IMG/VR virus record: IMGVR_UViG_3300030102_007485
Coordinates: 1 to 64,000 of that record
Length of the DNA: 64,000 nt
Reading direction: 5' to 3' (one strand)
Source: a virus
In this document: in pieces, positions 4,063 through 62,864 of the stretch
Position numbering within the stretch: the first letter of the stretch is position 1
Layout: each line of letters begins with the position of its first letter
The notes under the pieces: model-generated
Database searches by the model: none
Seen by the model: the letters and a program-made list of their open reading frames with translations, nothing else
Told to the model about the DNA's origin: nothing
Program-made: the position numbers and the translations under genes

Positions 4063-4097
4063 GATTTTAAGATATATATTATAGGCAAGGATACCCA

Positions 4098-5747
4098 ATG
4101 AGCGTTAAGAAAACAATAACCAACAACTATACAATCAACTTTAAAGAAGATGTGATACCTCAATACGGTGGTACTGAGACTTCAACCGCGGTAACAGACT
4201 TCGCTGTAACAGTGCGCAGGTCAGGATCCGATACAGCATCAGGTGATCGTGTAGGGTTTGTCACAAGAATGTGCAAACGCAAAAGCACTGCAGGCAGTTC
4301 GCCGTCGGATACAACAACAATACTTGCTTGGAGCGCGCCTAATTGGGATGGCGCTAAGGAAACAAACCTTGGCGCGGTATATCTCGTAAGTTCGAGTGCA
4401 GAAAGTTCCGTGGGCACTAACGGTAGTACCACGAATAGATGGGGAGATAACATAGGTCAATTCCCAGCAATGCGTTTAACTACATCTTTAGACACTAACC
4501 CTGGTAATGGTGGATCTGGCGGGCAGCGTACATTAGGTTCTATGCCAGGATGGGGAAGCACCTATTGGACTTCCCGACATCATGGTTTAACCGTTGACTG
4601 TAATATATGGGACAGCATTAACGGTTACTATATTAATCGAGTTATTGCTGGCGCTACCAGACACTACGGTGCCGCTGCTAATGGTAGCAATACTTATATA
4701 GGATGCGTTCATATCTGGGATATGCCCGCGGGTGTCGGTAATACAGATTTTATTACCGAGTATGTTGTTACCGCGTCTAATGCAGCATCTTCAGGGGATG
4801 AGTTCGGTGCAGAGGTCTGCGCAGTTTCAAACAATTTTGGTAGTTACTTTTTTGTATCTGAAGTCTCTAAGGACGTTGCCGGCAAGAATGCCATGGGACA
4901 AGTGCACGCATATGCTTTTAACAAGTCAAACGACCCACACCTTTACCTGGGTGCAATCAATTCTCCCGTTAGTGAGTCTAGTGCATACTGGGCAAGTTCC
5001 CTTGCTGCGGATGGAACAACATTGGTTGGCGGTATGTTGCAAAAATATAAAGCAGGCATCTTTAAACAAGTTGGATCAGCAGAATGGGCACACATACAAA
5101 CCCTTACTCACCCAAGTGGCGCAGGCGCATCAACATTCCAATATGGTTCGTCTGTGGCAGTTTGTGGGGAGTATGTTGCTGTTGGTGCACCTAGAGACGA
5201 AGAAACGGAAAGTTCCGGTTATGGTGCAGGTATGGTGTTTATATATAAGTCTGGTAGTTCTGGTTATGCACTCGAAGACGAACTTTACCTTACCGCTTCT
5301 GGTACCACTATCACCAAACTTAGTCATTTCGGTGCGCATGTCGAACTTGATACTAAAGGAACTGATAAGTATATTATCGTTGGCGCACCCCAATACGGCG
5401 AAACTGGAGAAGATCCTGGTCGTGTTGAGATCTTTAAAAGTGGATCCTCCGGATGGGCAACTCATAAGATTTACGCCCCTCATGGAGCAAACGATTACGA
5501 GTACTTAGGTTGTTCTGTTGATATTACTGGTGGCGTTGCTGTGGCAGGCGCTTATAACGATAGAGTAAGTGGAGATAGCAATAGCGGTGTGTTAGCGGGG
5601 CAAACTTATATATATGATGCAACCTCTGTTACTACCTCCACTACGACCAATAGTGGACACCCATTTAGGTTTGGCGCTAAGACTGTTTCTAACATTAGAG
5701 GGATCGGTGCTGGTACTAATATAAAGATCACTACGGATAACGAATAA
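4098..5747 (+). CDS. FG-GAP repeat beta-propeller, probably a virion or adsorption protein
   Basis: Repeats such as YGSSVAV..VAVGAP, FGAHV..IVGAP and LGCSVDI..VAGAY; Gly/Ser/Thr-rich. Confidence 0.8.
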   Translation: MSVKKTITNNYTINFKEDVIPQYGGTETSTAVTDFAVTVRRSGSDTASGDRVGFVTRMCKRKSTAGSSPSDTTTILAWSAPNWDGAKETNLGAVYLVSSSAESSVGTNGSTTNRWGDNIGQFPAMRLTTSLDTNPGNGGSGGQRTLGSMPGWGSTYWTSRHHGLTVDCNIWDSINGYYINRVIAGATRHYGAAANGSNTYIGCVHIWDMPAGVGNTDFITEYVVTASNAASSGDEFGAEVCAVSNNFGSYFFVSEVSKDVAGKNAMGQVHAYAFNKSNDPHLYLGAINSPVSESSAYWASSLAADGTTLVGGMLQKYKAGIFKQVGSAEWAHIQTLTHPSGAGASTFQYGSSVAVCGEYVAVGAPRDEETESSGYGAGMVFIYKSGSSGYALEDELYLTASGTTITKLSHFGAHVELDTKGTDKYIIVGAPQYGETGEDPGRVEIFKSGSSGWATHKIYAPHGANDYEYLGCSVDITGGVAVAGAYNDRVSGDSNSGVLAGQTYIYDATSVTTSTTTNSGHPFRFGAKTVSNIRGIGAGTNIKITTDNE

Positions 5748-5784
5748 CATAAAAATTTTTTCCCGCGAAAACGCGATAAAATAG

Positions 5785-5792
5785 ACTAATTA
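5785..5792 (+). promoter_or_regulatory. Putative late promoter ACTAATTA, leaderless (4 nt to ATG)
   Basis: The same motif and spacing recur at 16022, 21493, 47989 and 26602 (minus strand). Confidence 0.65.
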
Positions 5793-5796
5793 CAAT

Positions 5797-8103
5797 ATGA
5801 TTAAAATAAAAATTTCTCCCGAAGAAAAAATCGGCGGTTGTGGGACGCCACTTGTTGAAGCACGGGTTAAGGATGTTAAGGCAAAATATCCCGAACTAAC
5901 CCAATCCGATTGGATCGACTGGGCACGCAAAAACATTGCTGAAAAGATCAGCGATAAAGCAGTTTCTAAATATCTCCTCTATTGGGCAAAAGCAATGGAC
6001 GTCCAATTCAAAGGCGAAACGGCAGAAGAACTAAAGGGAAGCGATGATGTCATGGAGATTGCCAAAGTCATGCTTGACCTGATTGCCAAGTTTGAAGCAA
6101 ACCAGTCCCGCTTAAAAGAAAAAGATATCTATAAATACGATGTACCAGAACTTGAAAAAGCAATTAAAGATCTTGGTCTTTCATCGCGAGAAAAGAAATC
6201 AAAAGAAAAAGAAAAAGCGATTGAAGGATCCGAAATCGTATATGAAGAAGACGACATGTTTGCTGTCCGACCCTACACCGAAGGTGCTTCATGTTTCTAC
6301 GGAACAAACACCAGATGGTGCATTTCAGCAACACAATCTAGAAACTACTTTGCTCAGTACACCGAGGAAAGAAAAGGTTTCGTCATGGTTAGAATGGAAA
6401 ATTTACCAGAACAAGACGATGATAGAAGGATTGCTTTAGTGTTCGATCAATACGGTGATTTTGATGAGGCATATGATGCCCCCGACAATCAAATGGGATA
6501 TAAAGAAGTCCGCGATGTTATTGCAAGAAACTGGAGCGTTGGTCAAGGACAGGACGATAATTTATATAATAACCTTGAAGACGAAGATCAAGAGATAGTG
6601 CAATCAATTCTGGATAAACTTATGGATGCTGGCAGAGATAACATCCTAGATAACCCACCTGAAGGCGAAAGCATTGAGTCAAAATTAGAAGAATTAGAGC
6701 AAAGGTATGAATCAGAAATAGAACATGCTTATTTTAGTTCTGAGGCATACGATGATAGTTTTTGGTTTAGTGGTGGGTTTGACATTCAATTGGATCCAGA
6801 CAAACTAACAGCAGAACTTGACGACCAAGACTGGCGCGATCTTGCTGATGCTTCCGAAGAGATTCTGTCAAGTCTTGATAGGGAGTTGCAGATATATGCC
6901 TCTGAGGTTGATATCGAAGAAAGCGGCAGAGTCATGATCTCACTGAGCACTGATGAATTCGACCTTACTATTGATAGTTATGAGAATTTCCTGGAAGGAC
7001 TTGCAGAGGCAGACAAAAGATATAAAGGAATCTTAAGACTGATCGCAAAAGAGTTTATGGACCGCGGTTGGATGGGTGGCACCGACTACGACTCATTTAC
7101 TGAACAACTTAGCACCTTAAGTGATAAACTTACTAACTTTACAATCTCTCAAGATTCTGATCTAGGAGAAGAAGAAATTATTTTTAAATCTGAACCTTTT
7201 CGTGTCCCGGACGTTGATTATGGTTTTCTCAGGGACACTTTAAAAAGTGATTTGTCGAATCCAACAGTCAACGATAAAGTGTCAAAAGCAGTATCTGGTT
7301 TGAATAACAAGATCGTTTCTTTACTTAGAAAACAATTGCCCTTGCCAGGAATCCCACAAGCAAAGTTAAAAGAGTTCACTATCCCAGAGATGCTCAAGGT
7401 CAGACTTAAGTTTCATGACGGATCAGTGTGGGCACAAGTAAGATTAACAATTGATGATGTTGAAATTACAAAAGATTCTATAGATATGACTGTAGATGTT
7501 GCCAACTTTATTGACAACAATTTTCAAGAAATTGTAGAAATGGTAGTGAAAGTTGTGCATAGCGAAAGCGAAAATTATGTAAATCAAAACTCTTTAGATG
7601 AAGTAAAAAACAAGATTCGTGCAATGATCGAAGAAAAGATTGCTGCTAAACTTGCTGAGAAGAAAGATGCTTGCTATCATAAAGTAAAGTCAAGATATAA
7701 GGTTTGGCCCAGTGCATATGCCTCTGGCGCTCTAGTGAAGTGCAGAAAGGTCGGTGCTAAGAACTGGGGCAACAAATCCAAGAAAAAGGCAAACGAGTCT
7801 CACTGTACCGACGATGATGACAAAGATTCTGTAGACGAGAAAAGAAAACTAACTAAAAAACCAGGTTCTGAAAGCAATCTTGGGGACTGGTTTAAACGAA
7901 AGGGGGAGAAGGGATCCAAGAGCGGATGGGTTGACTGCAACACTTGTAGAAAAGATAAAAAAACAGGTAGAAAGACCTGCAAGGCATGTGGAAGATCTTC
8001 GGGCGAAAAGAGAGCAAAGTTTCCAAAGTGTCGCCCAACCCCTGGTGCTTGTAGTAAGAAAGGTAACTACGGCAAAAAGTCTAAAGCAGGAAAAAAGGGA
8101 TAG
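5797..8103 (+). CDS. Multidomain protein: PcfJ-like YGxxTxWC domain, acidic core and C-terminal basic Cys modules
   Basis: ASCFYGTNTRWCIS motif; C-terminal DACYHKVKSRYKVWPSAYASG and WVDCNTC modules of the kind seen in T4-like phage hypothetical proteins. Confidence 0.7.
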   Translation: MIKIKISPEEKIGGCGTPLVEARVKDVKAKYPELTQSDWIDWARKNIAEKISDKAVSKYLLYWAKAMDVQFKGETAEELKGSDDVMEIAKVMLDLIAKFEANQSRLKEKDIYKYDVPELEKAIKDLGLSSREKKSKEKEKAIEGSEIVYEEDDMFAVRPYTEGASCFYGTNTRWCISATQSRNYFAQYTEERKGFVMVRMENLPEQDDDRRIALVFDQYGDFDEAYDAPDNQMGYKEVRDVIARNWSVGQGQDDNLYNNLEDEDQEIVQSILDKLMDAGRDNILDNPPEGESIESKLEELEQRYESEIEHAYFSSEAYDDSFWFSGGFDIQLDPDKLTAELDDQDWRDLADASEEILSSLDRELQIYASEVDIEESGRVMISLSTDEFDLTIDSYENFLEGLAEADKRYKGILRLIAKEFMDRGWMGGTDYDSFTEQLSTLSDKLTNFTISQDSDLGEEEIIFKSEPFRVPDVDYGFLRDTLKSDLSNPTVNDKVSKAVSGLNNKIVSLLRKQLPLPGIPQAKLKEFTIPEMLKVRLKFHDGSVWAQVRLTIDDVEITKDSIDMTVDVANFIDNNFQEIVEMVVKVVHSESENYVNQNSLDEVKNKIRAMIEEKIAAKLAEKKDACYHKVKSRYKVWPSAYASGALVKCRKVGAKNWGNKSKKKANESHCTDDDDKDSVDEKRKLTKKPGSESNLGDWFKRKGEKGSKSGWVDCNTCRKDKKTGRKTCKACGRSSGEKRAKFPKCRPTPGACSKKGNYGKKSKAGKKG

Positions 8104-8429
8104 TGAAAATCGTAATAGAAAATCGCAAAAACAAAGTAAACGAAGTGGAATTTAATCTTTCCATGGGCGATACTTCTCCAACAGATAAAGGTATTGACCG
8201 TACTTTTGACAAGATGTTGAGGGGAAAGTATTATGACGCTTATAAGATTTTGTACAATGATGGTGCTGGTTTTTTAGACCAACCCATCCCCAACCTGCTA
8301 AGAAAATACTGGAAGTTTGCAAGAAAATTTAGCAAAATTGATGGTAGGTTCGTGCCTCCACAGGTTTGGTTAGACGACATCAAAAAAGGAGACGCCTCTT
8401 ATTACAGACAATGGAACAGGAGAAATTAA
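8103..8429 (+). CDS. Hypothetical protein with MKIVIEN leader
   Basis: ORF track; leader shared with neighbours. Confidence 0.7.
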   Translation: MKIVIENRKNKVNEVEFNLSMGDTSPTDKGIDRTFDKMLRGKYYDAYKILYNDGAGFLDQPIPNLLRKYWKFARKFSKIDGRFVPPQVWLDDIKKGDASYYRQWNRRN

Positions 8430-8430
8430 C

Positions 8431-8808
8431 ATGAAAATCATAATTGAAAACTCAAAAAATAACAATGAAAAGTATATGCACATATCTGACGGTCTGTATG
8501 AGGATGGAAGTCCTTTGGAAGAGGATTTTGAATTCCATGAACCTATGGACAACAGTGCCATTGAAGAGGCAGAGTACAGAGGCAGAAAGGTTAAACTAAA
8601 CAAACCCATGAGAGGGGATGTTAAAAAGTTTAAAGTATATGTAAAAGATCCAAAGACTGGAAACATCAAAAAGGTCAATTTTGGAGATCCAAACATGAGA
8701 ATAAAGAAATCTAACCCAAAAAGAAGGAAATCTTTCAGGGCAAGACATAATTGTGATAACCCAGGACCAAAAACAAAAGCAAGATACTGGTCCTGTAAAA
8801 AATGGTAA
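8431..8808 (+). CDS. Basic Cys protein (DUF6321-like, ..RRKSFRARHNC..KARYWSCKKW)
   Basis: Recognisable phage/giant-virus module following an acidic leader. Confidence 0.75.
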   Translation: MKIIIENSKNNNEKYMHISDGLYEDGSPLEEDFEFHEPMDNSAIEEAEYRGRKVKLNKPMRGDVKKFKVYVKDPKTGNIKKVNFGDPNMRIKKSNPKRRKSFRARHNCDNPGPKTKARYWSCKKW

Positions 8809-8833
8809 ATCTAATATCTTAAGGAGATTAAAC

Positions 8834-9184
8834 ATGAAAACTACAAAAGAAAAAATCGAAACCCTAATTCAAGAAGAAATTAAAAACTTAATTGAAGAAA
8901 AGGGTTTGACCGACGAAGCAGCAACCAGTATTCCCGGTGCTGCCACCACTGGTAAAAAAATTCCAAAACTTGACAACCTGCATCCAGTTAATTTGAAACA
9001 AATGATTGACAACATTGGAAGTTCGCTTGTTAAGGTAATGTATGACAAACCTGATCAATTAAGCATGGTCACTCTGTTTCAACAAGCGGGCAAGGAAGAT
9101 CTTGCCAAAAAGGCAGCAATGATTCGCGGACAGATTGAAGAGTTGTTGCCTGAGTTATCTGCACTGAAGGCGCTTAAAAAATAA
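8834..9184 (+). CDS. Hypothetical protein with IxxLIxEE leader
   Basis: SD AAGGAG, ATG 8834. Confidence 0.75.
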   Translation: MKTTKEKIETLIQEEIKNLIEEKGLTDEAATSIPGAATTGKKIPKLDNLHPVNLKQMIDNIGSSLVKVMYDKPDQLSMVTLFQQAGKEDLAKKAAMIRGQIEELLPELSALKALKK

Positions 9185-9199
9185 CAGGGGGACTTTAAA

Positions 9200-9517
9200 T
9201 TGAAACTTATACTGGAAGGTTGGAGGAAATTCATAACCGAAAGACATGAACCACTCTATAGTGTGGACGATGAAGTTGCGTATAACGAAAAATATGAAGA
9301 AGTAGACCAACTAATTGCCGCGGCAGAGGAAAAACAAGGCGAATTGGTCAAGATAAAGAATGGAATGTTCGTTATGTTTGATGGTGAACAGTACCTTGTA
9401 TATGACACTCCAACCCCAGCGGACACTGATGACTACAAGGATCTTTACTATTCCGAGGATCGAGACACTTTGTTGCAGGTTGCGATGGCAGATATCACAC
9501 AGGTGGACCTACAATGA
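9200..9517 (+). CDS. Acidic hypothetical protein with MKLILEGWRKF leader
   Basis: TTG start after AGGGGG. Confidence 0.75.
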   Translation: MKLILEGWRKFITERHEPLYSVDDEVAYNEKYEEVDQLIAAAEEKQGELVKIKNGMFVMFDGEQYLVYDTPTPADTDDYKDLYYSEDRDTLLQVAMADITQVDLQ

Positions 9518-9777
9518 GAGGAATGAGAGCAATTTTTGTCTTTTTTGTGCTTTTTGCTCTCTTTTTTTTACTAACTTATGGCACAGTTCTCGCAAAAGAG
9601 AAAACAAAGGTTAAGTTTTACAACTTTGATGACCTTTTGGTTGATGGGAAGGTGTCAAAACCCAAACTTCTTTATGTCGATTCAAGACAGAGGGTAAAAT
9701 TTGAAAAACTTCTTAAATTAAAAAAGGATTTTTTGCCCAAACTAAAAGAAACCGAACGTGATCCAGCACTAAGATGA
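9514..9777 (+). CDS. Secreted small protein resembling the gliding-motility protein CglF/GltF
   Basis: Signal peptide (VLA), then YNFDDLLVDGKVSKP..YVDSRQRVKFEKLLKLKKDF, matching my recollection of the CglF core. Confidence 0.6.
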   Translation: MRGMRAIFVFFVLFALFFLLTYGTVLAKEKTKVKFYNFDDLLVDGKVSKPKLLYVDSRQRVKFEKLLKLKKDFLPKLKETERDPALR

Positions 9778-10169
9778 CCATGCTTAAGATATTAATCCAA
9801 CCAAAAGACTCCAAAACTGTTTGCAAAGCGATTATCGTTGATAAAAAAGGCAGAGTTTTGCTGCTGAAACGCACTGAGTACATGAAAAAGTTTGCAAATA
9901 CTTGGGATTTGCCTGGTGGGCATGTACATGTTGGAGAATCCAACGTCGATGGGTTGCGAAGAGAAGTCAAAGAAGAGACTGATCTTGATTTGTCTGATGT
10001 AAAATTTGCCAAAACTGTAGATGGTAGGCACTTTTTTCTATGTAAAGTGGACAAATTTGACATAAAATTAAGCAATGAACACTCTGAATACCTATTTAGA
10101 GAAGTAGAAGAGTTGGATGTTCGTAACAAATTCGAAAAAATAGCGCAGGAGATACTAAAAAATGGATAA
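9774..10169 (+). CDS. NUDIX hydrolase
   Basis: Nudix box GGHVHVGESNVDGLRREVKEETD. Confidence 0.9.
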   Translation: MTMLKILIQPKDSKTVCKAIIVDKKGRVLLLKRTEYMKKFANTWDLPGGHVHVGESNVDGLRREVKEETDLDLSDVKFAKTVDGRHFFLCKVDKFDIKLSNEHSEYLFREVEELDVRNKFEKIAQEILKNG

Positions 10170-10452
10170 AGAACTACTAAAGCAGGTCATTTTAGAGACC
10201 CTCAAAGAAGAACTCGGTGCTCAACCCGAGGAGGCACCTGAAGAAGAGGGTGCTGGCATCACTACTAGTGAAATGAGGGAAGAATTGATCTCTTTGGCAA
10301 AAGATTCTAGAACTATTAGTTCTATTGCTGCTCCAGAAAGGCAGGTTATTGTTGCTGCAATCAAGGAAATGATGCAGTTGGCAGTGCAAAAAAACATTAC
10401 CAGCGGAAACGTTGCGACTTTATTAAACAAACTTTTCGCATTGAATAACTAG
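10162..10452 (+). CDS. Hypothetical protein with LKQVILE leader
   Basis: ORF track. Confidence 0.7.
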   Translation: MDKELLKQVILETLKEELGAQPEEAPEEEGAGITTSEMREELISLAKDSRTISSIAAPERQVIVAAIKEMMQLAVQKNITSGNVATLLNKLFALNN

Positions 10453-10463
10453 GAGAAAAACAA

Positions 10464-10967
10464 ATGTCAATAGGATCAGAATTTCATACACCTCAAAGTT
10501 GGGGAAAAACCCGCAGACCAAAAGCACTCAAAAGAGCTGGAGCAATTGCTGAGAAAGAGGCAGCAAGTGAGGTTGTACTCCTGAACGCTTCGCAATTAAG
10601 CGGTAGTATCGACTCTACGACCGGTGCTGGATATAACGGATATGCAACGGAAAACCAAAGATTTCTACACTTGCAAATTGAGAATAACGGTACCGGGGAT
10701 CACGTAAAGTTGTATGCTTACAATTATGCTTTTGGTTCTTGGTCGGAACTTTACTTGCCTTATGGTGCCGCTACTCAGTTGGATACTGGAGATGGAGACG
10801 GCGGTGCCCAAACAACTAATGACGTTTGGGTTGAAGCAAAATGGACATCAAAAAATGGAAAATTTATGGTAACCGTCCCTATTCACGGTATAGATCGTAT
10901 CGGTTTTGTGCACGATGGCACCAAAGGTAATGATCTCAAAGTCCGTGCTGCTTGTTCAAGTTTTTAA
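10464..10967 (+). CDS. Hypothetical beta-rich protein, possibly structural
   Basis: SD AGGAG; Gly/Thr-rich. Confidence 0.7.
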   Translation: MSIGSEFHTPQSWGKTRRPKALKRAGAIAEKEAASEVVLLNASQLSGSIDSTTGAGYNGYATENQRFLHLQIENNGTGDHVKLYAYNYAFGSWSELYLPYGAATQLDTGDGDGGAQTTNDVWVEAKWTSKNGKFMVTVPIHGIDRIGFVHDGTKGNDLKVRAACSSF

Positions 10968-10992
10968 AATTTCAAAGAACAAATGATATAAT
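10964..10992 (+). promoter_or_regulatory. Sigma70-type promoter
   Basis: TTAAAA, 17 bp, TG-n-TATAAT 10987-10992. Confidence 0.55.
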
Positions 10993-11025
10993 AACATTAT
11001 ATGATATAAAAGTCAAGGAGAAATA

Positions 11026-11256
11026 ATGTTAACCACTCAATTTTTTGTTTTCGGCATGTTGACCGGTGCAATTATTTGTGCTGGCACATTCTGGATCTGC
11101 CTGAACTACCTCAACCAATTCAAAACCCGAAGAACATTCCACATCGAACTTGAATCACCTAAAGAATATCACAGAGGTTTGCTTCGTGTCAAGGAAATAA
11201 TCAATAAAAATGAAAATTTAGGCAATAAAGCGTTTGGATCTTTTAAAAAGAAATAA
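11026..11256 (+). CDS. Single-TM membrane protein
   Basis: SD AAGGAG; hydrophobic N-terminus. Confidence 0.7.
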   Translation: MLTTQFFVFGMLTGAIICAGTFWICLNYLNQFKTRRTFHIELESPKEYHRGLLRVKEIINKNENLGNKAFGSFKKK

Positions 11257-11262
11257 AAGTAC

Positions 11263-11291
11263 TTTACAACTCTAAAAAAATATGCTATGCT
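11263..11291 (+). promoter_or_regulatory. Sigma70-type promoter
   Basis: TTTACA, 17 bp, TG-n-TATGCT. Confidence 0.55.
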
Positions 11292-11357
11292 AAAGAAGTT
11301 ATACGCTTTTACTTCTAAACTTTTAAATTTATTAGTATGTATTAATATTTAAAATAG

Positions 11358-11840
11358 ATGACTATTTTCAAAACAGGATCAGGTCAGAATGCTTCTCTTG
11401 AAGAGATAGAAAGTATCTGTAAAGATTATGTTTCGAAAGGTGCTAGAATATTTATTGGTACTGATTCATTTATGAGCAAGAAAAAAGTTTGCTTTGCTAC
11501 CGTTATTTGTCTACACGGAAACGGAAACAAAGGAAAATATTTCTTTTTAAGAGATGTCATACCCATAACGCACTATAAGGTGTTAGTTAATAGAATAACT
11601 GAAGAAGTCAGAAGATCTATTGAATGGGCAGACAAAATAAGAGAAGACTTCAAAATCCCTCAAAATAGCATAGAAGTACATATCGACGCCTCACCAGTTG
11701 AGGCAAAAATGAAAACTTCTAGGTTTATTGAAATGCTCCAGGGTTATGTTGCTGGTGCTGGGTTTGCTTATAAGATCAAACCTAATGCCTGGGCAAGTCA
11801 GACTGTTGCGGACAAACACTCTAAATCAGTAAGAATTTGA
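11358..11840 (+). CDS. RNase H-like YkuK/DUF458 family protein
   Basis: IFIGTDS, EVRRSIE, EVHID and IKPNAWASQTVADKHSK motifs. Confidence 0.85.
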   Translation: MTIFKTGSGQNASLEEIESICKDYVSKGARIFIGTDSFMSKKKVCFATVICLHGNGNKGKYFFLRDVIPITHYKVLVNRITEEVRRSIEWADKIREDFKIPQNSIEVHIDASPVEAKMKTSRFIEMLQGYVAGAGFAYKIKPNAWASQTVADKHSKSVRI

Positions 11841-11841
11841 C

Positions 11842-12156
11842 ATGAATAGTAGAATTGATGGTTATTCTATCTCCAGAGATGATCTAGTGGAGAGTTATGT
11901 TAGGAAACACTACGATCTTGGCACGATTATTGTAATGTTTAACGTACAAAACCACCTAGATTATCTTAAACAAAAAGGTTTTACAATACATAATACATAT
12001 GTGTGGGATAACGAGATAATGATCTTTGAATTTCGAGACGTCGAGGAAGCAAAATTTATATTAGACTATGTATCTGGTGAGGACTGTCCTTTCACTCAGG
12101 TCTGGAGTCATGGTAAGTTAATATGCGACAATCTTGATCGACTTGCAAAATCTTAG
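11842..12156 (+). CDS. Hypothetical protein
   Basis: ORF track. Confidence 0.65.
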   Translation: MNSRIDGYSISRDDLVESYVRKHYDLGTIIVMFNVQNHLDYLKQKGFTIHNTYVWDNEIMIFEFRDVEEAKFILDYVSGEDCPFTQVWSHGKLICDNLDRLAKS

Positions 12157-12180
12157 ACTATTTATAATTGGAGAAAGATT

Positions 12181-13014
12181 ATGGAATCATACAGCAAAAA
12201 GTGGAACACGTTTATAAAGGAAGGTGGGTTTGACCCCTCTAAATTTATCATACAGAAGACTTTAAATGCCAAAATTTGGAAAAACGGTGAAATAAAGTCA
12301 GATGTACAAAGTGCATTGATGGAGATTGCCAAGGAATTTTACGAACATCTTTCAAAAGAGGTGGACGACATACCAGAACTAGAAGATGTAATATTCACAG
12401 GTTCTGTTGCAAGTTATAATTACCACGATTTGTCAGACATAGATTTGCATCTAATTTTGGACTTTTCAAAGTTCAAGAAAAATCCTGAACTCTTAGAGAA
12501 ATATTTCACTGCAAAAAGAATTAATTGGAATAAGGTTCACAACATAATGGTAAATGGTCATGAGGTTGAGATTTATATTCAAGATGCAAACGAAGATCAC
12601 ATGGCAAGTGGGATATATTCTTTGCAAGACGATGAGTGGATAAAGAAACCTAAAAGAGAAGAGGTTTCGATTGATTTTGAAACAGCAAAGAAGAAATACA
12701 ATTCCTTGTCAAATGAGATTGCAGAATTGCAAAAAATGTTTTATGATGGTGAATATAGAAAGGTACATGATCATACAATTAAACTTAAAGATAAGATTAA
12801 GAAAATGAGGACCTCGGGATTGAGAGACGAGGGGATATATTCTAGTGAAAACTTGGCGTTTAAGATGCTGAGAATTAATTTAGATTTAGAGAGACTAAGT
12901 TCTCTTAAGACAGATTCTTATGATAGGATGATGTCTGTGACAAATTCTGAAAAAGTCAAGATTAAAGTACAAGAAGTTTGGCGGAACTTCGTGGCAAAAG
13001 GAGAAGTAAAATGA
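12181..13014 (+). CDS. Pol-beta superfamily nucleotidyltransferase
   Basis: TGS...SDIDLH and EVEIY motifs; late motif ACTATTTA at 12157. Confidence 0.85.
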   Translation: MESYSKKWNTFIKEGGFDPSKFIIQKTLNAKIWKNGEIKSDVQSALMEIAKEFYEHLSKEVDDIPELEDVIFTGSVASYNYHDLSDIDLHLILDFSKFKKNPELLEKYFTAKRINWNKVHNIMVNGHEVEIYIQDANEDHMASGIYSLQDDEWIKKPKREEVSIDFETAKKKYNSLSNEIAELQKMFYDGEYRKVHDHTIKLKDKIKKMRTSGLRDEGIYSSENLAFKMLRINLDLERLSSLKTDSYDRMMSVTNSEKVKIKVQEVWRNFVAKGEVK

Positions 13015-13913
13015 TAGACCCAGACACCCCATACGGTGTTGTAGATAACGACACAGGAGAGGTTGTTTATAAGACAACTTATAAAAATAGAAATAAAGCA
13101 CGTTCGATAAAAGACAAAAAAGATCTAAAGCACGGTAAAGTTAAGTACAGTGTAAAAGTTTTGGAGGAAGAGAGCATGAGAGAAGGATCAATGAAAAAGA
13201 CCAGTCGCTTCAAGGAAGGAGACAAAGTCGAGCACAAAGAAGAGAAACGCGGCGTAGGCACTGTTGTTTCTAGGTCTGGTGATACTGTGGGTGTTAGATG
13301 GCCATCGGGTCAAGAGTCTCATAACCATGGTATGCTTAGAAAGACTGGTGTGAAGGAGGGTCATGAAGATTCATTTTCTTATTACGATGATGAAGAGGAA
13401 CCCTACGACTATGATGGGGGAGAACCCTATGACTATGATGGTGATGAAGATGATTTAGATTACGAGTTGCGTGATAGGATGCGCGCCATCAAGGCAAAAG
13501 AAAAGGAAGAAAGAGAGAAAAAATCTGTCAAAGAAGTCAATAAAGGGCAAAAAAAGGAACTTAAAAAGATTTCTAAGGAACTTGCCAATGCATCTAAGAT
13601 GCACAAGGGGCAATCTGACAGAATCTCAGATCTTTTAGACAAGGACGACGAAAAAGAGGACATTGAAGAAGGCAAGGCAAAAAATTGCGGATGTGGACAA
13701 GATCCTTGCGTCACATATGGCATTGCTGAAGAGTTGGAAAACCCTGAGAAGGCAGACCTTGACAAGGACGGAGAACTAAGTTCTTACGAAAAAAAGAGAG
13801 GCAAAGCGATTGAGAAATCGATGAAAAAACAAAAAGGTCTAAAAGAAAAACTTTATGAGTCAAGAGACACCAAGTTGTTTCAGAAGTTACTTAAAAAGTG
13901 GACAAAGAAATAA
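13011..13913 (+). CDS. Modular charged protein (SH3-like, Tyr/Asp repeat, CGCGQDPC, EF-hand-like DLDKDGELSSYE, LLKKWT tail)
   Basis: ATG 13011 overlaps the upstream TGA; motifs visible in the translation. Confidence 0.75.
   Translation: MIDPDTPYGVVDNDTGEVVYKTTYKNRNKARSIKDKKDLKHGKVKYSVKVLEEESMREGSMKKTSRFKEGDKVEHKEEKRGVGTVVSRSGDTVGVRWPSGQESHNHGMLRKTGVKEGHEDSFSYYDDEEEPYDYDGGEPYDYDGDEDDLDYELRDRMRAIKAKEKEEREKKSVKEVNKGQKKELKKISKELANASKMHKGQSDRISDLLDKDDEKEDIEEGKAKNCGCGQDPCVTYGIAEELENPEKADLDKDGELSSYEKKRGKAIEKSMKKQKGLKEKLYESRDTKLFQKLLKKWTKK
13398..13442 (+). repeat. 24-bp tandem duplication encoding EPYDYDG twice
   Basis: GAACCCTA(C/T)GACTATGATGG at 13398 and 13422. Confidence 0.85.
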
Positions 13914-14592: not shown

Positions 14593-14593
14593 G

Positions 14594-14770: not shown

Positions 14771-14771
14771 T

Positions 14772-14962: not shown

Positions 14963-14993
14963 CAATCTACATTAACAAAGGAAGATAAAAAAC

Positions 14994-16779: not shown

Positions 16780-16783
16780 AAAC

Positions 16784-20911: not shown

Positions 20912-21222
<311 letters not shown>

Positions 21223-21504: not shown

Positions 21505-22092
21505 ATGCAGATCTTAATCGAAAAGTGGTCCAAGAAATATAAGAGATCAATTGATTGTAACAATCCAAAAGGTTTTTCTCAAAAAGCACACTGTCAAAGC
21601 AGAAAAAAGAGAGAAAATCTTACCTTAAATCAAATAATTCAAATTATTGATGAAGAAATACAAAATTTTCTAGATGAAAGGTGTCAAAAAGGTTACAAAA
21701 CTCACCCTACAAGAAAAACTAAGAAAATGTTTGGTAGGACTTACAGAAATTGTGTCAAAGCAGATGAAAGTTCTGATCCAAAAAAGGGAACTGGTAAAAA
21801 ACCAAAGGGATCTGGTAGAAGACTTTACACTGATGAAGACCCAAGTGACACTGTGAGTGTTAAGTTTCGAACTGTTTCTGACATAAAAGACACCTTTTCA
21901 AAGTCAAGTTTTAAAAGCAAGTCACATAAAAGACAATCTCAGATTATAAACCTAGTCCATCAGCGAGTTAGGGCAGCATATAATAATGCGAAAGACCCAG
22001 AAACCAAAGCAAGACTCAAGAAAGCACTTGATTATGCTAAGAAAAAGAAAGAGTCTTCAAAAGAGAAGACAAAGAGGATGAATAGAAAATGA
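21505..22092 (+). CDS. Polymodular basic Cys protein
   Basis: Modules KWSKKYKRSIDCNNPKGFSQKAHC, RCQKGY..NCVK and DPKKGTGKKPKGSGRRLYTDE, separated by xxE sites. Confidence 0.75.
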   Translation: MQILIEKWSKKYKRSIDCNNPKGFSQKAHCQSRKKRENLTLNQIIQIIDEEIQNFLDERCQKGYKTHPTRKTKKMFGRTYRNCVKADESSDPKKGTGKKPKGSGRRLYTDEDPSDTVSVKFRTVSDIKDTFSKSSFKSKSHKRQSQIINLVHQRVRAAYNNAKDPETKARLKKALDYAKKKKESSKEKTKRMNRK

Positions 22093-22511: not shown

Positions 22512-22516
22512 TTTGT

Positions 22517-50030: not shown

Positions 50031-50031
50031 G

Positions 50032-51102: not shown

Positions 51103-51140
51103 TAATTATATGTAGTAATACACAAGTGAATTAAAGGGTT

Positions 51141-54100
51141 ATGACTCAAAAAGTACACATTGGATTGTCAAAGATAAAGTTTGAACCATCTTTAGGTTTC
51201 TCCTTCTCAGCAGACGAGTATATGACTCCTGGTGAGCACCATGTGGATTTCCTTGTCTTTAAGGATTTTCTTTCAAGGAAGGTTTTAAAGTCACTATATG
51301 TCTTTGGATCTGTTGATGGGATGCTTGGAAATAGATCCACGGAATCTGCACGACCCTCAATGAGAAAACTCTCCATGGATGAGGGTAATAGGTTTTGTGA
51401 AAAGACTGTAAGAGCAATCAAGGCATACCAACTATTAAACAGAAGGTCAATATTGCATTATGGTCAAAAACATTTTTCCTGGGCATCAACAACCCCAGAG
51501 CAATCAAAAAGTCTGCACCCCGGAGAAGTTTCAAAAATAATGACCAATGACTTCAAGATTGCGTCAACTCCCGACTTTTCCAAAGAGTTCGGTTTGTTGG
51601 GACCAGCAACAATTGCTGTTATGTTGGGTTATCGCTTTCATAGGACTCACATTAATCCTGATTGGAACAAAGGTCTTGTTGTAGACAATGGTGTTGCTGC
51701 GTATGGGTCTATGGTGGAATCAGACCAATCCAACAACTTCTTTTCAAGTTTGTCATCAAGGCAAAAAAGAAGAGCGGAAGAGTTTGATCGAATTTATAGT
51801 CTGAGAAAAGAATACCAGGAATATAAGAAAAACTCGCCCGCCCCTTCAGAGCAAGATAAAAAGAATTTCTTAGACGCAAAAGGCGTAAAGTATCAGTTCA
51901 TGGAAGATTTGGGTGACACCACATTTTCACTCATTGAACAAGAGGCGGATGTCAGGATTTCATACACACCAATGACCGATACTCCTGATGACGGTGAGAT
52001 TTTAGTCGTCGAATCGGTCATGACAAGAAAGTTGTACGACAAGGTCTATAAAAGTTCACCAACCATGAAGTTTTCACCTGCAACTGCTAGTAGTCTACTT
52101 GATTCCTTGCGGGCTTTTGTGAACCGCCGAAAAGGTCTTGAGGGTGCAAACGGGTCTTCTGTTTCTCGATCTGGCATGACTGCAAAAAAGGCGGTTGATA
52201 TATTATCAAAACCGCAACCTTCCGCACAAGGAGACGATCCTTGGATCGGAACTGGAGAGGTCAAAAATTTTGTGCACATATATGTAGACTCTGACTACAC
52301 CATTGAAGAAGAAGCGGAACTATATGCCCGCTTTGGGGGCAAGGTTGCAACGAAGACTCCTCCTTTAAGAAAGCGTAAGCAGAAGGGACTAAAAAAAGAT
52401 GATGCCTTTGTCAAGGAGATTCAGTTTGCCCTTCTTGTCAACGGTGTTTTAGACTCTTTTGATGTACCTGTGATAGAGTCAGAAAAGGAGCGAGTTCAAC
52501 TGAGAGTGGAGGATTCATCAGATGCTGTTGTTAGTCTTTTTAAAGAATCTGGGGTTGATCTCGACTCGGCCCGAATAGCGGTCGCACAACAAAACGATCA
52601 ATTACCGCCAGATGCACAGGGTGACATGAGTTTTTCTTTCGACATTGGTGATGCTGACAAGGAGGGTCACACTGTCCCGGTTTCAGAGTTCAAAAACAGA
52701 CCCACGGGACATATAACATACCTTGAGTACTTGCTGTATGTTGATGGAAAGTTTGGACAAGGTACAGAGTCTGCCGTAAAAAGTTTTCAGTCTAACCATG
52801 GGTTGAAGTCTGATGGGGTTGTAGGTACTCTAACTTATCGCAAGATCTATCAAGTCCATGGAGACAAACTGAGCAAATATGGTTTTGAGAGCATTAAGGA
52901 CACCCTTGGTGCCAGAGCGGAAGTTGCAAACAAGAAGCATGACTACAAGTACTTGACAAGAGATTTGTCTCGTAAAGCGCTGCAGAAAGTTTTTGCTTAT
53001 TATAAAAAAGAAACAACCTGGAAGTTAAATCTTGCTGACCCTGAGATAAATGACATATATCCTGGAAAGTACAACCCAACTTTGACACAACCAGTCACTT
53101 TATCAATCAACGATGACACTTTATTTGATTTTGAGGACGTTGATGCAGAACCATTTAGAACCATTCACGAAGAAATTGACCTTCCAGAATCTTTTTGTAC
53201 AGTAAGGTCGCAACTCAGACCACTTTCTGACATTATGGCAAACTTATCTAATGATGTCGAAGCAAAAAGGAGTTATTGGGCAACAGAGTCTGTAGCAGAC
53301 TTTTTTATACCTCCAACTAGACCTGGAGGTTATTTTATGGTTGAATATGTGATAGATCGTAAAAAATTAGATCTTGTTTTATCGAAAACAGATGCAAAGG
53401 TTGTTGATGCAGTAGATGCTGGGATTATGGCATTTGAGACTGCTGCTGTTATTTATGACAAGGTTTCAAAGTTCTTGGAAGACCCCTCCGCGGCATATGA
53501 ATTAGCAGAAGAAAAGGTTTCCAAGGCAATTGACGACTATGCTTCCGCTAAAATTGAAGCAATAAGTGAATACAAGAGAGATGCAATCAAGAATGCAGGA
53601 AAGAATACAAGAAATGCTTGGAAAAAACTAAGGAAGAAAAAACAAAAAGATCGAAGGAACCGTTTACTCAAAGAGCGCGCTGCCAAAAATGCAAGTCAAA
53701 TACAATCAAGAGATGTTCAACTTTTGGGTGGAACAGCAAAGTTTGAAACTCGCTTGTTTAGGAAAAAGATAGACAAGGTTGCCAACAAGATGATTGATCT
53801 GAATCAATCTTTTCAGGACATGAAAAAGGAGCAGAGCAACATCCAAGCAACAAACAAAGACTTGGGCGCTAGAGGGTACTCTCACAAAAAAAAGGAAGAC
53901 CCATTTCAGTCTTATAGCGACTTTTTAAATATGAAACCCGAATTAGATTTAAAGAAGGATGCAGAGAGATTGAGGGAAATACCTGGTGCTATGGAGACTT
54001 TTTTAAAGTTAAATGGACAACATCTTGAAGATAAGTTCAATAGGTTTTTGGAGTTTGATTTTGCAAAAGTCCGTGATAGGTACGGCAATATATTGGGTGC

Positions 54101-57100
54101 AAAAATCAAGAGCATATATTTTGTCGGACAAAAACCAGCGGACTATATTGATGAACAGGTCTCCACCGCCGCGGCCTTTGCGGGATCAGAAGAGTCTTTT
54201 CGTGCGTCCCGTCGCAAGTTGGAGCACGGGTTTGATGCACTTATTAAAAAGTCTCCTTTTAACGATCATAGGATAATGTCCTACTTTGCGCAAATGAATG
54301 TTATCGATAAGGAACTGTTCAAATCTGCCTGGGGTTCCCGCTGCGGCGAATATGAGACACTGCCTGTCATGGACTTTATCAGCAAGTATGTTTATCCTGC
54401 ACCTGGTATCTCTTCATTGACTAACGATGCCACGCCTGTAAATAAAAAGACAAGTTCAGGAAAGCCTGTAATTACAGTAAAGGAGAATATAGAAGAGAAT
54501 GTAGGGTTGATGTTCTCTCAGTTAAAGACGTCTGCTCAGCGATTGACTGAGCAAGCGTCTGTTACTGCTCAAAATGTGGACTCTTTGGTGCAATTTAAAA
54601 AAGGAAAAACATATGACGCAAACGACCTGTTACCACTTGGCGAGTTGTGTACGTGGGAAGAGATAACTCAAAAGTTCATAAACACTTTCGATTTTAAGTC
54701 GTACTGGTGTGAATTTAGTGCGTGCTTGCCTGATATACCGTGGCCAATTGTTATTGATTTGACGTTTGATATCCCAAAACTTCCAAAACTTCCAACTTTA
54801 AAGCAGTTGAGGATCATATTCGACCAACTCTATATCAGTTTGGTGGAGATGCTGGTGCGCTTTTTTTGCACTTTGATTAATAAATTGCTTGATTTAATTA
54901 GATTTCCAAACTGTGATGAAATTTTTGAGGCAGCACTTTTTGGTGCAGCAAGTCTTGTGAACGCAATTCAGGAGCACGACAGTATGGAGACCCCTGTGCC
55001 AATTGGGTCTTACGACATTTCATCGCAGTTTTTGAGAGGGGTCGACCAGTCTAATTTTAATTCCAGCAAAACGAAGGTTCAAAAAAAGATGTTAAACTCT
55101 TTGACGTCTTATGGGATTCCTGCAGAACTTTTATCTGACCCAGACTCTGGAGTTAACGGATCTTCGATGACTGATATGATAAATGATCTTTCTGCCCTGA
55201 TGAGACCAACAGAACTGACCTCTCTTCTGCGCGGTAATGCAACCCCAGAAGTTTTGACAATAATCGTAAATTACATAGATATGAACATACCTGCTTTGTC
55301 TGAATATCTAAGTAGTGAAAATTCAATACAAGATTTTTTCTCTAACTTGGGTGGACTGATTGATGTAGAGGTTTTGAACAGAATAGACAAGATACCTCAA
55401 ATTCTGGCAGAGAACAGGTTCTGTCCGGAAACCGTTGACGCAAGATCCAGAATTATAATGGGTGATCTTTCTGAGGATCAACTCAGGTCGGCAATAAATG
55501 CACACAACTCAAAGAGTACTCAAACTGCTGAAGCAGTCCGAGCGATGATGACCGACAATCCGATTGCAAGTGCTATGGGTGACCTTTATAATCCAGGAGA
55601 TCCTAATGCAATTATCTCCGACGTGCCTGCACCGATGGTTGAGATAATTGAGAGTACAGCAAAATCAATCTTTGAAGTGCCAAAATTTTCTTTTATTGCC
55701 GATGTTTCAAGGTATACAGACCTGTTGTACGATCAGGCGAGCAGACCACTGGAGTACGAAGACCCAGAATTTAATTTAGATATAGAAAACAAAGCATTAG
55801 AAGCGATAGAGATTCTAACAAAAAACGAGGCAGAAATAAGAAACGCCCTTACAGGTGCAAATGTTGTTCGTAAATGGAGGTTGCGAGAACGACTTTACGA
55901 AAAATTCCATTATGATGTTTTTGTGGTCGAAAAGAAATTCAAAACCCAAAGGCGTAAACGCAACCGTCAAGGGTCTACAAAACTGGTTACTACAGTTAAA
56001 TTGTATCCGGAAGTTTCTGATGAGTTGATGCAACAACTTAAGAGTGGTGCACTGACTGACAGTTGTGGTGGCGTTACCGATTTGAACGAAAATGGAAGAA
56101 CCGAATTTCATTTTCTAATAAAAAGAATTGGTTCCTATAACTCAGATCTTTCCCCTGGTGTCCCTTCTTTTGAGAACTTGCAGTTAGAATTGGTAAACCA
56201 AGTGTTTAAGTTGTCGAATTATGTACCAGACTTTTTACCAACAGGTGCTTCCCTCATGGTTAAACCCCAAAAAGAAGACGAAGATGGGATTTTAATCCCT
56301 AATGCTCCGATTCTGCGCCGCGATGATGGTACTGCTATAAAATCAAGTTTGAACATGAACGACGTGTCGGAATCGGAAAAGACTGGATTGATTCGTCAAA
56401 TTACTGACTCAATTGTAACCAGGATCACTGAATTGCAAAATGCTGTAATGAGGCACCTGGAAGTAAACATGTCAGATAAGAATGATTCTGCTCTTCTCCC
56501 CGAGATCAGAAAGTACTATGATCGATCTGAAGAGACCAGAAGAGAGAGAGGTCTGGTCGGTGACGAAGAAGAGTTCTTTAGGGTGGTACCAAGCGCAACA
56601 GCAGACGGTTTTAGTTTTGAGTTGTCTTTGCCAAAAAGATTTCAGTCGTCTCTGGTTTATGAGGAGGTGGCTTCTGAGGGAGACGAAGACTTGTACAGAA
56701 TAGTCATAAACGATCAGGTGCTGATGAAATCCTCAGAGAATTTTTATGGATGTGACATTTTACCACAAGAATATGCCCGTCCCCCCGGCGTGTCTTCTCT
56801 TGCCAAGAAGGGAATATACGTGGATATTGTGCGTCGTTCGATGGTAGATCATTTTAAAAGGTATCAAAGGAGTGAGGGATACGGTGCGGCACTGTCCAGT
56901 CTTAGACGGGCATTTACCCGAGATTTAGAATCCCCTGGTCAAATTGCAGATCAATTGCACGAAGACTCGTACAACAGTACTTTTGAAATGTTTTTTGAAG
57001 AAATCATGGACCAAATGTCTGACTCTAGAATCTTTAATGATCCTGAGTATATAGAAAAACTAGATGTCAGAATAAGAGGTGCAAGAGAGTATGATAAAAA

Positions 57101-60100
57101 TGGATGCCTAGTTAGATCAACTAAGGGTCTTATAGATTTTGAGGAAATTGTAAAAAGTGCTTCTTCTCGTGTTCTTTCGGCATTTAATGACCCCTCCTTC
57201 CATCCGTCCAAGATGGAATTTAATGCTGGGTCCATGGGTCCGTTTGAGAAGGGTATAATTCATTCTGCGATATATTTGATGGTCAATTTTTTGCTAATCG
57301 AATTTGCGCTGCGAGGCGGCATTGCCTTTTCATCATTTTCTCCAAATGCTCTGTTTGGAAAAGAATCAAGTGGTGCAAACGATAATTTTCTTCATAATTA
57401 TTTGGTCAATTTTATATCAAATAGTCTGTCGCAAGTGATGGTTAGTGCAAACGTAGCGTTCCCTGAATCAACTAAGATAACAGACAAGACTCTTTTGTAC
57501 CCATTCAGAGATGTCTTTATGAATCACTGCGTAGAGTACGTTCGAGTTGTATCTCCAAGCACTGTTAGCACGAGTGATAAATCTGCAAATCAAAAGAGTG
57601 CAATTTCCTATATTGTCAACGAGGTGATAAAAGAAGGTCAACTAATTGATATGATTGAGGGGCTTTTTCACGGCACAGAGCAGGAAAAGAAACCCTTTGT
57701 TAAAACTTTCCTGGAAAATTCACAAATTTTGTCCATACCAGAGGAGACCACTCCAGATGGAATGTGGAAACTAAGTGATGTGGAAGAACCAGAAAATGCC
57801 ATAGAAAAGGGTCGGTTCTTGTTGCAAAAGTATATAAGGGTTACAGGACCTGCCGCTTCAAGAGATTTGTCTCAATATACTTTTAGTGAGGAGTTCTTGT
57901 CTAAAAAGGATGAAATACTTCAGCGTCTTAGGGAGGTGGATCCCAATCAAGATTTGTTGGTAGATGATCCAGTTGCTGTCGCTGATCGAATTGATGCAAG
58001 AATTGATGTTCTTGAGGAAATGGAACCTCTACCTGGCGCTGCCGACGATGATTACAGAACACCTTTGGAGAATGAGCAAACGGAAGTAGTTTCAATCGAG
58101 GAACTCAATAGTTATTTGAGAAACTCGTACCAAGGGTCCTTTAATGAAGAATTGTGTAACTTGTTAGGTCTCATTTACACAGAAGACCCAGAGAACCCCT
58201 GTTTTTTGATGCCGGAAGCATTCACTCGTTTTCCAGGCAAACTTATTAAGAAAAACTTTAAAAGATATAAGATTGACAGAGGTTTTACCGTTCGTAATCA
58301 AGGTCAGATTGAGGGAATTGGACTTCGCTTCCGATACAGGGATTGGGTTGGCCGAGGGCGCAGTGGGTGGAAAGACGAGGAAGAACTACTTGCATACAAT
58401 GCAAATCCTCCTCTAGACCAAGCTGGTCGCCCAATGGTCGGGGGTTTTAACGATAGAAATGTTGTAAGATCCCGCGATGTGCGTTTTTCCTATGAAGTTG
58501 ATCAGCAAAACGGAGATCGAGGATTCTTCAATGATGTTTTTGACCAATCCCTACTATCAGATGCTAATCAACCGGAATCCTCTCTTTATAGTACAGGTAT
58601 ATTCTCGAAACTTGGTCGCGCAGGACAATTGGGGGCACTTGTTCATGTGGAGGATGCTGATCCTGAATATTTAATGCTTGAAGAAGATGTTTGCAAGATC
58701 TCATCTGATTTCGGAAAAGAGGGCATAACTAAGATTTTTGAGGGGTATTCTGCTGGTGGTTTTGTAGCCGAGCGAGAAGATCTGTTACTAACTGCAGAAA
58801 TGAAAAACTTTTCGGAATCTTTTACACCAATCATCGGGGCAGGAATTCAAAAACCTAAAGGACCGGAAACATTCTCTCTACTCAGCATGGGTCAGGGCGA
58901 GAAATTGAAACAAGGAGTGGTCGATGCAGTGCCCTTTATGGACAGTGCCTTTAACACATACCAGAATTCTCCAGACTTGATTCCGCTCGACATGCTCACT
59001 AACCGGTCTAATTCTTTGCAAGAAGGTGGGGACTACAGTTACGGATCATCCCACCCTAAAATTGAGGATCTTGGTCCTCGCGGTATGAGGAGGATGGAGC
59101 AAAATGACAATCCTCAAGAACAGTTGTTTGGTTGGAAGAAGGGAAAGATAACCGAAGAAGAATTCAATCAATATAGGTCCATGGAAAACCTTTCGGATGG
59201 TTTAAGACCTAGGTTGCAAAACGATATTAAAATACTAGGTCCAAACGATGTTTATGAGGAATGGACACATTACCTTATAGAGGATCCAGGATACGTTTTT
59301 GGACATCCCGGAGAATCTTTGCACCATCCAGAAAGCATGGGGTGCATGATGGACCCATATCACTTTGATGGAACCGACGCCCCCCGCGATGAATATGGTG
59401 ATGACTGGTCGTACGTCCATCGTCATTGGGTAGATAGAGCGTTTTTAGAATGTTGTCGTGCCATTGAGGACAAATCTCTCTTGACTGATGAGAGTAAAAA
59501 GCAATCTCGGGTTGGTCAATATTGGGGTTGGGGTTTTGCAAGGTTTAAGCGCCATGGTACCGGGCAAGGACGTAACACCGACCGGTACAATCCGGGACAT
59601 GGTCGCTATGATCAGGTTTTCCGATTTAACCATGAAAAGCGTTGGGACGGCAGTAAGGAGAAAGCCACAGAGCATCGACGGAGAATTAGACAGTTTCCTA
59701 ATCGTGCGGCAATCATGGTCAGACCATTGGGGTACCAAAACGAGTCTTACGAGCATGAAAAGACTAACGAATTAGGGGCAAACGAGTATGCTTCCCCTTT
59801 AAAGATATTGGTAACCAGGATAGACTATAAGATTGGGGATACAGTTTTACACTCTGATGTTTACATGGGGTCAGAATATAATGACGGCGGTATATTGGCA
59901 GGGTCTGATCTTCGTGCCTCGCATACGGAGAACGAATATCGCTCCTTAATGCTGTCCGAAGCAATAAACAGACTTATGATGGAGTGGGTTGAGAATAATA
60001 CATCTGCAATTAATCTTTATAATGGAGAGGTGTCTAGCGATTTTCTTCGTGACAACTTGCGAAAAAGAATTGAAGAATATGTAAGTATGTATGTTTCTAA

Positions 60101-62864: not shown

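Follow-up and report, generated by a model that had tools for sequence, protein, structure and literature searches.

The question raised by this locus is why the DNA of a phage is nearly devoid of a word as short as RGCY (AGCT, GGCC, AGCC, and GGCT) and what removed it. The DNA studied comes from an uncultured marine T4-like phage whose IMG/VR virus record is 77,879 bp long. The initial 64 kb of this record (positions 1 to 64,000) are referred to as the window and have a G+C content of 39.7%. Only 21 RGCY sites were counted on its + strand (AGCT 2, GGCC 9, AGCC 5, and GGCT 5), while the comparison words RGCR, YGCY, and YGCR were found 939, 654, and 673 times, respectively. The RGCY set is self-complementary, and its two non-palindromic members, AGCC and GGCT, are present in equal numbers on the + strand. 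The extreme avoidance that the initial annotation had described was therefore real and even stronger than claimed. The stretch 4001-8000, which largely overlaps the region that had been scanned by eye (4081-8100), includes one RGCY and 82 RGCR, and all the exceptions that had been pointed out (225, 7706, 10535, 13300, 45205, 48416, 49351, 52112, and 58421) are genuine. When both strands were considered together, AGCT, GGCC, AGCC, and GGCT were the four most depleted among all 256 tetramers, with observed/expected ratios (O/E) that are, in ascending order, 0.01, 0.035, 0.035, and 0.087 under a first-order Markov model and of 0.02-0.14 under the maximal-order model. Depletion was not confined to the palindromes AGCT and GGCC, since AGCC/GGCT are equally depleted. 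The next lowest tetramer was GCTA/TAGC (O/E 0.47, first-order Markov), a value that is largely a side effect of the RGCY purge. No strong avoidance of any other 4-, 5-, or 6-mer free of RGCY was found.

A codon-aware null expectation was obtained by shuffling synonymous codons 200 times within each gene, a procedure that preserves the proteins and the codon usage of every gene, using 82 ORFs that represent 95% of the contig. The whole 77.9-kb contig has 23 RGCY sites, while 512 ± 16 were expected and the minimum among the shuffled versions was 454. With the Markov and codon-shuffle controls in place, the O/E after codon-aware correction was 0.045, far from 1. The depletion was found in all three codon phases (3, 9, and 11 sites vs. 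140, 161, and 210 expected). RGCY depletion is independent of base composition and codon usage. The purge spans the window from 1 to 64000 and runs on to the end of the contig at 77,879. It was also seen upstream, in a metagenome contig (L278, positions 1-12643) that overlaps the first 77 bases of the record: these 12,643 bp include 3 RGCY vs. 212 RGCR. The completeness of the record is 43% (CheckV), and addition of the 12.6 kb upstream brings the DNA seen to ~90 kb, about half of a phage genome of ~190 kb.

The way in which the sites were removed was apparent in the codon context. Alanine is encoded by GCY in 484 of 917 cases (53%) when the preceding codon ends in Y, but in only 11 of 474 (2%) when it ends in R. 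Similarly, glycine is encoded by GGC in 250 of 992 cases before R and in 2 of 605 before Y, and serine by AGC in 155 of 355 cases before R and in 1 of 178 before Y. A leucine codon of the CTN type follows an xRG codon once in 129 cases. Proline was found after xRG codons in 8 cases, 6 of them Trp-Pro. The purge works through a synonymous codon choice that depends on the neighboring base. No dipeptide other than Trp-Pro (TGG CCN) forces an RGCY, and the six Trp-Pro of the contig account for 6 of its 11 GGCC and 6 of its 23 RGCY sites. The following surviving sites, forced and unforced, illustrate both situations; the island mentioned in them is a more permissive region at 48.3-59.7 kb.

7706-7709, + strand: forced GGCC, Trp-Pro (TGG CCC), no recoding possible (codon context)
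13300-13303, + strand: forced GGCC, Trp-Pro (TGG CCA) (codon context)
45205-45208, + strand: forced GGCC, Trp-Pro (TGG CCA) (codon context)
49351-49354, + strand: forced GGCC, Trp-Pro (TGG CCA), inside the permissive island (codon context)
54742-54745, + strand: forced GGCC, Trp-Pro (TGG CCA), inside the permissive island (codon context)
10535-10538, + strand: unforced AGCT in AGA GCT (Arg-Ala), outside the island (codon context)
225: unforced GGCT, outside the island

Only three unforced sites were found in the 66 kb outside 48.3-59.7 kb. Two of them, 225 and 10535, are the only ones of this kind in the window, and the third, at contig position 76653, is located beyond it.

The remaining sites are not evenly distributed. 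Between 48416 and 59663 there are 16 of the 23 RGCY sites of the contig and 14 of the 17 unforced ones, all within a region that is permissive in relative terms:

48291-59700, + strand: relatively permissive island (codon-shuffle expectation vs. observed)
52112-52115, + strand: polymorphic GGCT, GACT in a diverged strain (52113 G>A, reads of run X3)
58350-58353, + strand: polymorphic GGCC, GGCA in a diverged strain (58353 C>A, reads of run X3)

Three genes contribute to the island: an orphan one coding for 579 aa, one coding for 368 aa, and that of a variable 3,907-aa tail protein, of which the island covers the first ~2,850 residues. The island has 16 sites vs. 94.8 expected (O/E 0.17), while the rest of the contig has 7 vs. 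414.5 (O/E 0.017), and the clustering of the unforced sites in it is significant (P = 2e-8). The impression that the exceptions are denser in genes then labeled "baseplate" was thus borne out. In the last 3.2 kb of the giant gene coding for the 3,907-aa protein there are zero RGCY sites. A foreign origin of the 48-60 kb region was considered and is unsupported by composition: its tetranucleotide signature is ordinary, with a correlation of 0.8-0.9 with the remaining contig. No proteins of the contig are less conserved than those of the island, for which no close relatives were found in IMG/VR.

Contigs of two independent studies match 46-64 kb without any difference. A diverged strain was detected in an independent marine run (X3), in which cover is missing over 49.0-50.2 kb, that is, most of the orphan 579-aa gene, and the flanks are covered. 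This pattern suggests that 49000-50200, located upstream of the tail genes, is a cassette that can be replaced. Among the best-supported 40 of the 86 differences found in this strain, two destroy a residual RGCY, both in the island (the polymorphic sites listed above), and none creates one, while the random expectation for those 40 differences is 0.11 sites lost (P = 0.0035) and 1.4 gained. Selection against RGCY is ongoing, and the depletion is still being maintained. In our reading, the island is the part of the genome with the fastest turnover, its host-recognition genes being subject to recombination and replacement, and new RGCY sites enter it faster than purging removes them. A parallel was found in a related purged record (G003), where one gene with 5 residual sites is 78% identical to that of an unpurged relative while the core genes are 50-60% identical. 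Either recent import or rapid local evolution would explain the island, and the data fit both.

The gene content of the contig includes PhoH, ClpP, a Cas4-like PD-(D/E)XK nuclease, RNase H-like and NifU-like proteins, a short PurA-like enzyme, and a tmRNA, as well as a 16-kb sugar/glycosyltransferase cluster and two giant tail proteins (3,907 and 3,375 aa). In positions 1-12643 of contig L278, upstream of the record, there are genes for Hsp70/DnaK (625 aa), the UV-damage endonuclease UvdE, a membrane protein of the haemolysin III family, and a pair consisting of an AAA_5 ATPase and a DUF2201 (VWA/metallopeptidase) protein. DNA nearly identical to that of the record was found in marine metagenomes of several studies, at least four, dated 2014 to 2025. 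A search for a near relative among cultured phages was negative, with no megablast match for 18 kb. The only nucleotide link to cultured phages obtained by blastn is a stretch of 126-138 bp, 81-84% identical, at 7351-7489 of the window. It is located within a 768-aa gene (5797-8103) and matches the gene for a hypothetical protein of many T4-like cyanophages of Synechococcus/Prochlorococcus (S-RIM2 and others). The PurA-like enzyme is an adenylosuccinate synthetase of 333 aa (14994-15995, + strand) that is conserved across the family and is named "PurZ-like" in PHROGs. A reading of it as PurZ, which would imply a Z-genome with 2-aminoadenine DNA, was discarded since the protein is far closer to PurA: against solved structures, bacterial PurA proteins were matched with E = 1e-57 to 1e-53 and PurZ of phiVC8 and S-2L with 1e-21 to 1e-16. 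The enzyme has an NKVD stretch opposite the TKLD of PurA, and the C-terminus of PurA is missing. It is a reasonable inference, as the initial annotation had suggested, that the phage DNA is not globally shielded by hypermodification, and none of the results speaks against it.

The phage family is T4-like, as relatives encode a T4-type Gp23 capsid protein. Many relatives are present in IMG/VR, with genomes of about 140-195 kb, one of them with direct terminal repeats. In most of 160 related loci the RGCY O/E is 0.8-1.2. The exceptions are L091/L092 (O/E 0.006-0.02), L144-L146 (0.05-0.08), and a partial case, L016/L017 (0.25). Only three lineages are purged. The sister locus of the window, L085, has an RGCY O/E of 0.98 (SH-aLRT 96), and at least three changes of the purged state were counted on a tree of the PurA-like protein. 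Purging of RGCY is evolutionarily labile. Other words were purged as well. The related record G001 (145 kb; L161-L168) has zero AGCT, GGCC, CCGG, CGCG, and GATC, with 119-594 expected for each, and 19 AGCC/GGCT vs. 636 expected. G003 has no GGCC and 3 AGCT, and in the complete genomes G006 and G010 no word is avoided. Trp-Pro is absent from G001 and G003, where 16.7 and 15.7 were expected (P about 1e-7), while the phage of the window has 6 vs. 10.7 expected. In the lineages of G001 and G003 the constraint on the DNA extends to the protein level. Among 138 non-redundant loci, the words that were nearly eliminated are GGCC (16 loci), GATC (6), GACC/GGTC (5), AGCT (5), AGCC/GGCT (4), CCGG (4), and CGCG (2), with one case each of TGCA, ACGT, CATG, CTAG, and TCGA; TTAA was likewise purged in the family. 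That relatives purge different words is the pattern expected from differing nuclease repertoires of their hosts (or enemies).

Two other profiles in the family were recorded. In L016 and L017 (record G004) the O/E of AGCC/GGCT is 0.10, lower than those of AGCT (0.35) and GGCC (0.47), and that of CCGG is 0.05. This profile does not fit a simple RGCY target or a palindrome-only one. In L012, L073, L076, L084, and L095, GACC/GGTC is nearly absent (O/E 0.04-0.15), in some of them together with a partial depletion of GGCC. This loss may reflect a GGWCC-type or other target.

Enzymes that could act on RGCY were sought in the phage and its relatives. The C5 methyltransferase family (PF00145) had no match in the contig or among the records of 43 relatives, 10 of which have a completeness of 90% or more. 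N6/N4 methylases (PF01555) were absent from the contig and from the purged records, and were found in 5 of the 43 relatives, all five unpurged. No restriction-nuclease family was detected in the 90 kb available, about half of the genome, with ~60 proteins scanned by Pfam, PHROGs, and PADLOC. The sole PD-(D/E)XK protein (29354-30217) resembles Cas4/RecB, and its conservation is the same in unpurged relatives. An all-against-all comparison of gene content was carried out between the purged G000, G001, and G003 and the unpurged G006 and G010; the purged records in it are 80% and 78% complete and the unpurged genomes are complete. No plausible avoider-specific gene emerged from this comparison. 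Its candidates were a 195-aa, a NifU-like, a 140-aa, a peptidoglycan-binding, and a 141-aa protein, none of them a nuclease or a methylase. Of these, the 195-aa protein (21505-22092) was discarded as avoider-specific because it is present in unpurged relatives too, and the NifU-like protein because it is simply a conserved protein. Conversely, the AAA_5 and DUF2201 pair, which had seemed specific to the unpurged genomes, was found upstream of the window in L278.

Some observations made during these searches concern neighboring genes and the host. At 22089-22900 (+ strand), the 140-aa and NifU-like proteins are 81% and 74% identical to the products of adjacent genes of G001, while identity in the core genes is about 50-66% between these phages. 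Either strong conservation or a recent exchange between two RGCY-purged lineages would account for this identity. A class I SAM-dependent methyltransferase (Methyltransf_23/11/25; 37868-38467, + strand) is encoded inside the glycan cluster. None of the four relatives compared has it, and its substrate is probably a sugar or another small molecule and not DNA. Contigs of the family (L198-L207; PhoH 51-67% identical) are included in metagenome-assembled genomes (MAGs) with mutually incompatible labels, namely Woesearchaeota, Methanosarcinales, Pelagibacter (TMED166, MED605), WOR-3, Gammaproteobacteria, Bacteroidetes, and Balneolaceae. These labels evidently result from mis-binned phage DNA. The tmRNA is of the one-piece type (20912-21220, + strand; Rfam RF00023, 130 bits), and its tag peptide, ANDDVEIFEDYALAA, may hint at the host clade but does not give a firm host.

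Two processes had been put forward in the initial annotation to account for the pattern, long-term selection and erosion by methyl-C deamination. In the second one, a host or phage methylase would produce RG(5mC)Y, which deamination would erode to RGTY/RACY. M.CviJI, M.AluI, and M.HaeIII are C5 methylases, a fact that counts in favor of such a process. Orthologous ORFs from 20 sources, all unpurged and comprising 18 loci and 2 whole genomes, were aligned codon-wise with the window, and the places were counted at which an RGCY of the relative lies in codons for the same amino acids. Of 423 such orthologous places, the RGCY was kept in the window at 1, while 26-28% of the control words were kept (RGCR, 129/469; YGCY, 90/341). 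The replacements followed every synonymous route, with 124 cases of Y>R at position 4, 73 of R>Y at position 1, 71 of C>A, 113 of C>T, and 49 of G>A. Although no single change is commoner than C>T (113 of 553 single-base changes listed), which is in agreement with deamination, transversions are the majority of the replacements at the 423 places. Furthermore, the products of deamination, RGTY/RACY, have an O/E of 0.94-1.06 under the maximal-order Markov model, that is, they are not enriched, while RGCR/YGCY are enriched 1.4-1.6 fold. The loss of xxR-GCY sites by deamination would require Ala>Val or Ala>Thr changes, yet 11 such sites were observed vs. about 210 expected and the alanines were retained. 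No C5 methylase was present in the contig or the 43 relatives. Since the replacements are mostly transversions and RGTY is not enriched, selection and not 5mC deamination made the pattern. Mutational decay is accordingly extremely improbable, and this part of the initial proposal did not hold.

Selection could still come from sources other than a single restriction enzyme of the host. The phage, or phages that compete with it, could carry a nuclease that cuts the DNA of the host or of rivals, the genome of its owner being safe because it lacks RGCY. This arrangement would parallel that of the chloroviruses with R.CviJI/M.CviJI, and viral MAGs from the sea include restriction and fused restriction-modification genes and phage m4C methylases for RGCY, with viral motifs that are rarely common to prokaryotic MAGs (PMC8919816). 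With about half of the genome available, the other half could still encode a methylase or nuclease of the phage. However, no restriction-type nuclease was detected by Pfam, PHROGs, or PADLOC in the 90 kb available, the Cas4/RecB-like protein is conserved alike in unpurged relatives, and purged and unpurged genomes differ in no plausible shared gene. We consider a phage-borne nuclease unlikely. The effect could also be the sum of several enzymes, one AluI-like (AGCT), one HaeIII-like (GGCC), and a third pressure on AGCC/GGCT. Some relatives do purge GGCC alone (16 of the 138 loci) or AGCT alone, and the AGCC/GGCT minimum in L016/L017 also points in this direction. Nonetheless, the four words drop together and to a similar depth in each of the three strongly purged lineages, which is more parsimoniously explained by one degenerate specificity. 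We know of no enzyme class whose target would be a non-palindromic 4-mer alone. In addition, RGCY has been seen as a single methylation motif in marine viruses (PMC8919816). A combination of enzymes is thus quite unlikely. Finally, RGCY could be avoided for a reason other than cleavage, as a packaging, transcription, or replication signal or as the substrate of a modification-dependent system acting after promiscuous methylation. This explanation is very unlikely: in close relatives, whose gene order and machinery are the same, RGCY is found at chance frequency, and sister lineages avoid unrelated palindromes, which points to changing external enemies and not to an internal signal.

We therefore consider it probable that strong and continuing selection is exerted against every RGCY by an RGCY-cutting system, most probably a Type II-like enzyme of the host. 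In this model, the phage would meet during infection a DNA-cutting system that recognizes the degenerate 4-bp palindrome RGCY. The agent would most probably be an orthodox Type II-like restriction enzyme of the marine host with the specificity of CviJI, and RGCY would be selected against on either strand and in every occurrence. The phage would escape by offering no target, as appears to be the case because no cytosine methylase was seen in 90 kb. Wherever the protein permits, a synonymous or neighboring codon would be picked such that R-G-C-Y does not form. The original proposal, long-term selection by an RGCY-targeting host defense, combined two claims that fared differently. Selection is the better supported of them, by the context-dependent synonymous rewriting, the survivors forced by Trp-Pro, the gain and loss specific to lineages, and the purging of other palindromes by relatives. 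Ownership by the host is weaker, as neither the host nor an RGCY nuclease was found; we infer both that the agent is a nuclease and that it belongs to the host. To our knowledge, the characterized RGCY enzymes (CviJI and CviKI-1) come from chloroviruses and not from bacteria, and we know of no characterized prokaryotic restriction enzyme for RGCY. The 23 remaining sites, which would still be cleavable, also argue against this explanation.

The phage is a case of restriction-site avoidance, a known phenomenon, and the point of interest is the missing enzyme. Rusinov et al. (2018) described site avoidance as widespread, mostly for orthodox Type II sites and in non-temperate dsDNA phages, with a near-complete loss of such sites in about a tenth of the genomes of prokaryotic viruses (PMC6286503). 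The present case is like those (PMC6286503) in that a short self-complementary word was almost eliminated by synonymous changes in a large T4-like phage in a lineage-specific manner. It differs from the classical ones in that the word, RGCY, is degenerate and in that the cognate host enzyme, which defines those cases, is missing. A full-text literature search for "RGCY" yielded no published description of RGCY avoidance in phages.

The recognition word is identical to that of the CviJI system of chlorovirus IL-3A, in which R.CviJI cuts RG^CY and M.CviJI makes 5mC. That system, however, belongs to a virus of eukaryotic algae with its own DNA C5-methylated, while here there is no C5 methylase in the 90 kb or in the 43 relatives. 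SMRT sequencing, which has served to study methylation in marine viruses, detects 5mC poorly. In a marine SMRT study, Hiraoka et al. (2022) found that m4C-RGCY was more frequent in viral MAGs than any other methylated motif; the 9 viral MAGs concerned are Myoviridae-like and have phage-encoded m4C methylases (PMC8919816). Viral motifs were rarely common to prokaryotic MAGs in that study, so that no host RGCY methylase was seen there (PMC8919816). Habitat, kind of phage, and word are the same as in our case (PMC8919816), but those phages keep their sites and N4-methylate them, while the phage of the window has no N6/N4 methylase in the available sequence and removes them. As m4C-RGCY is the commonest motif in marine viral genomes, RGCY appears to be contested in the sea.

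These findings lead us to propose, tentatively and as somewhat less than an even prospect, that an abundant and as yet undescribed RGCY nuclease, bacterial or carried by phages, may be present in the sea and act as a major selective force on large marine dsDNA viruses. If so, some lineages would answer it by N4-methylation and others by purging. In random DNA, an RGCY is found about every 64 bp, and its purge constrains roughly one codon pair in fifty. A pressure that is strong and repeated implies a common nuclease, undescribed from marine prokaryotes, and the m4C-RGCY methylation points likewise. Given at least three changes of the purged state in a single T4-like family, the distribution of purging could serve as a marker of host range or enemies of uncultured phages. 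Discovery of the enzyme would explain a major constraint on the genomes of marine phages and would provide a marker, readable from sequence only, that ties uncultured phages to their hosts or competitors.
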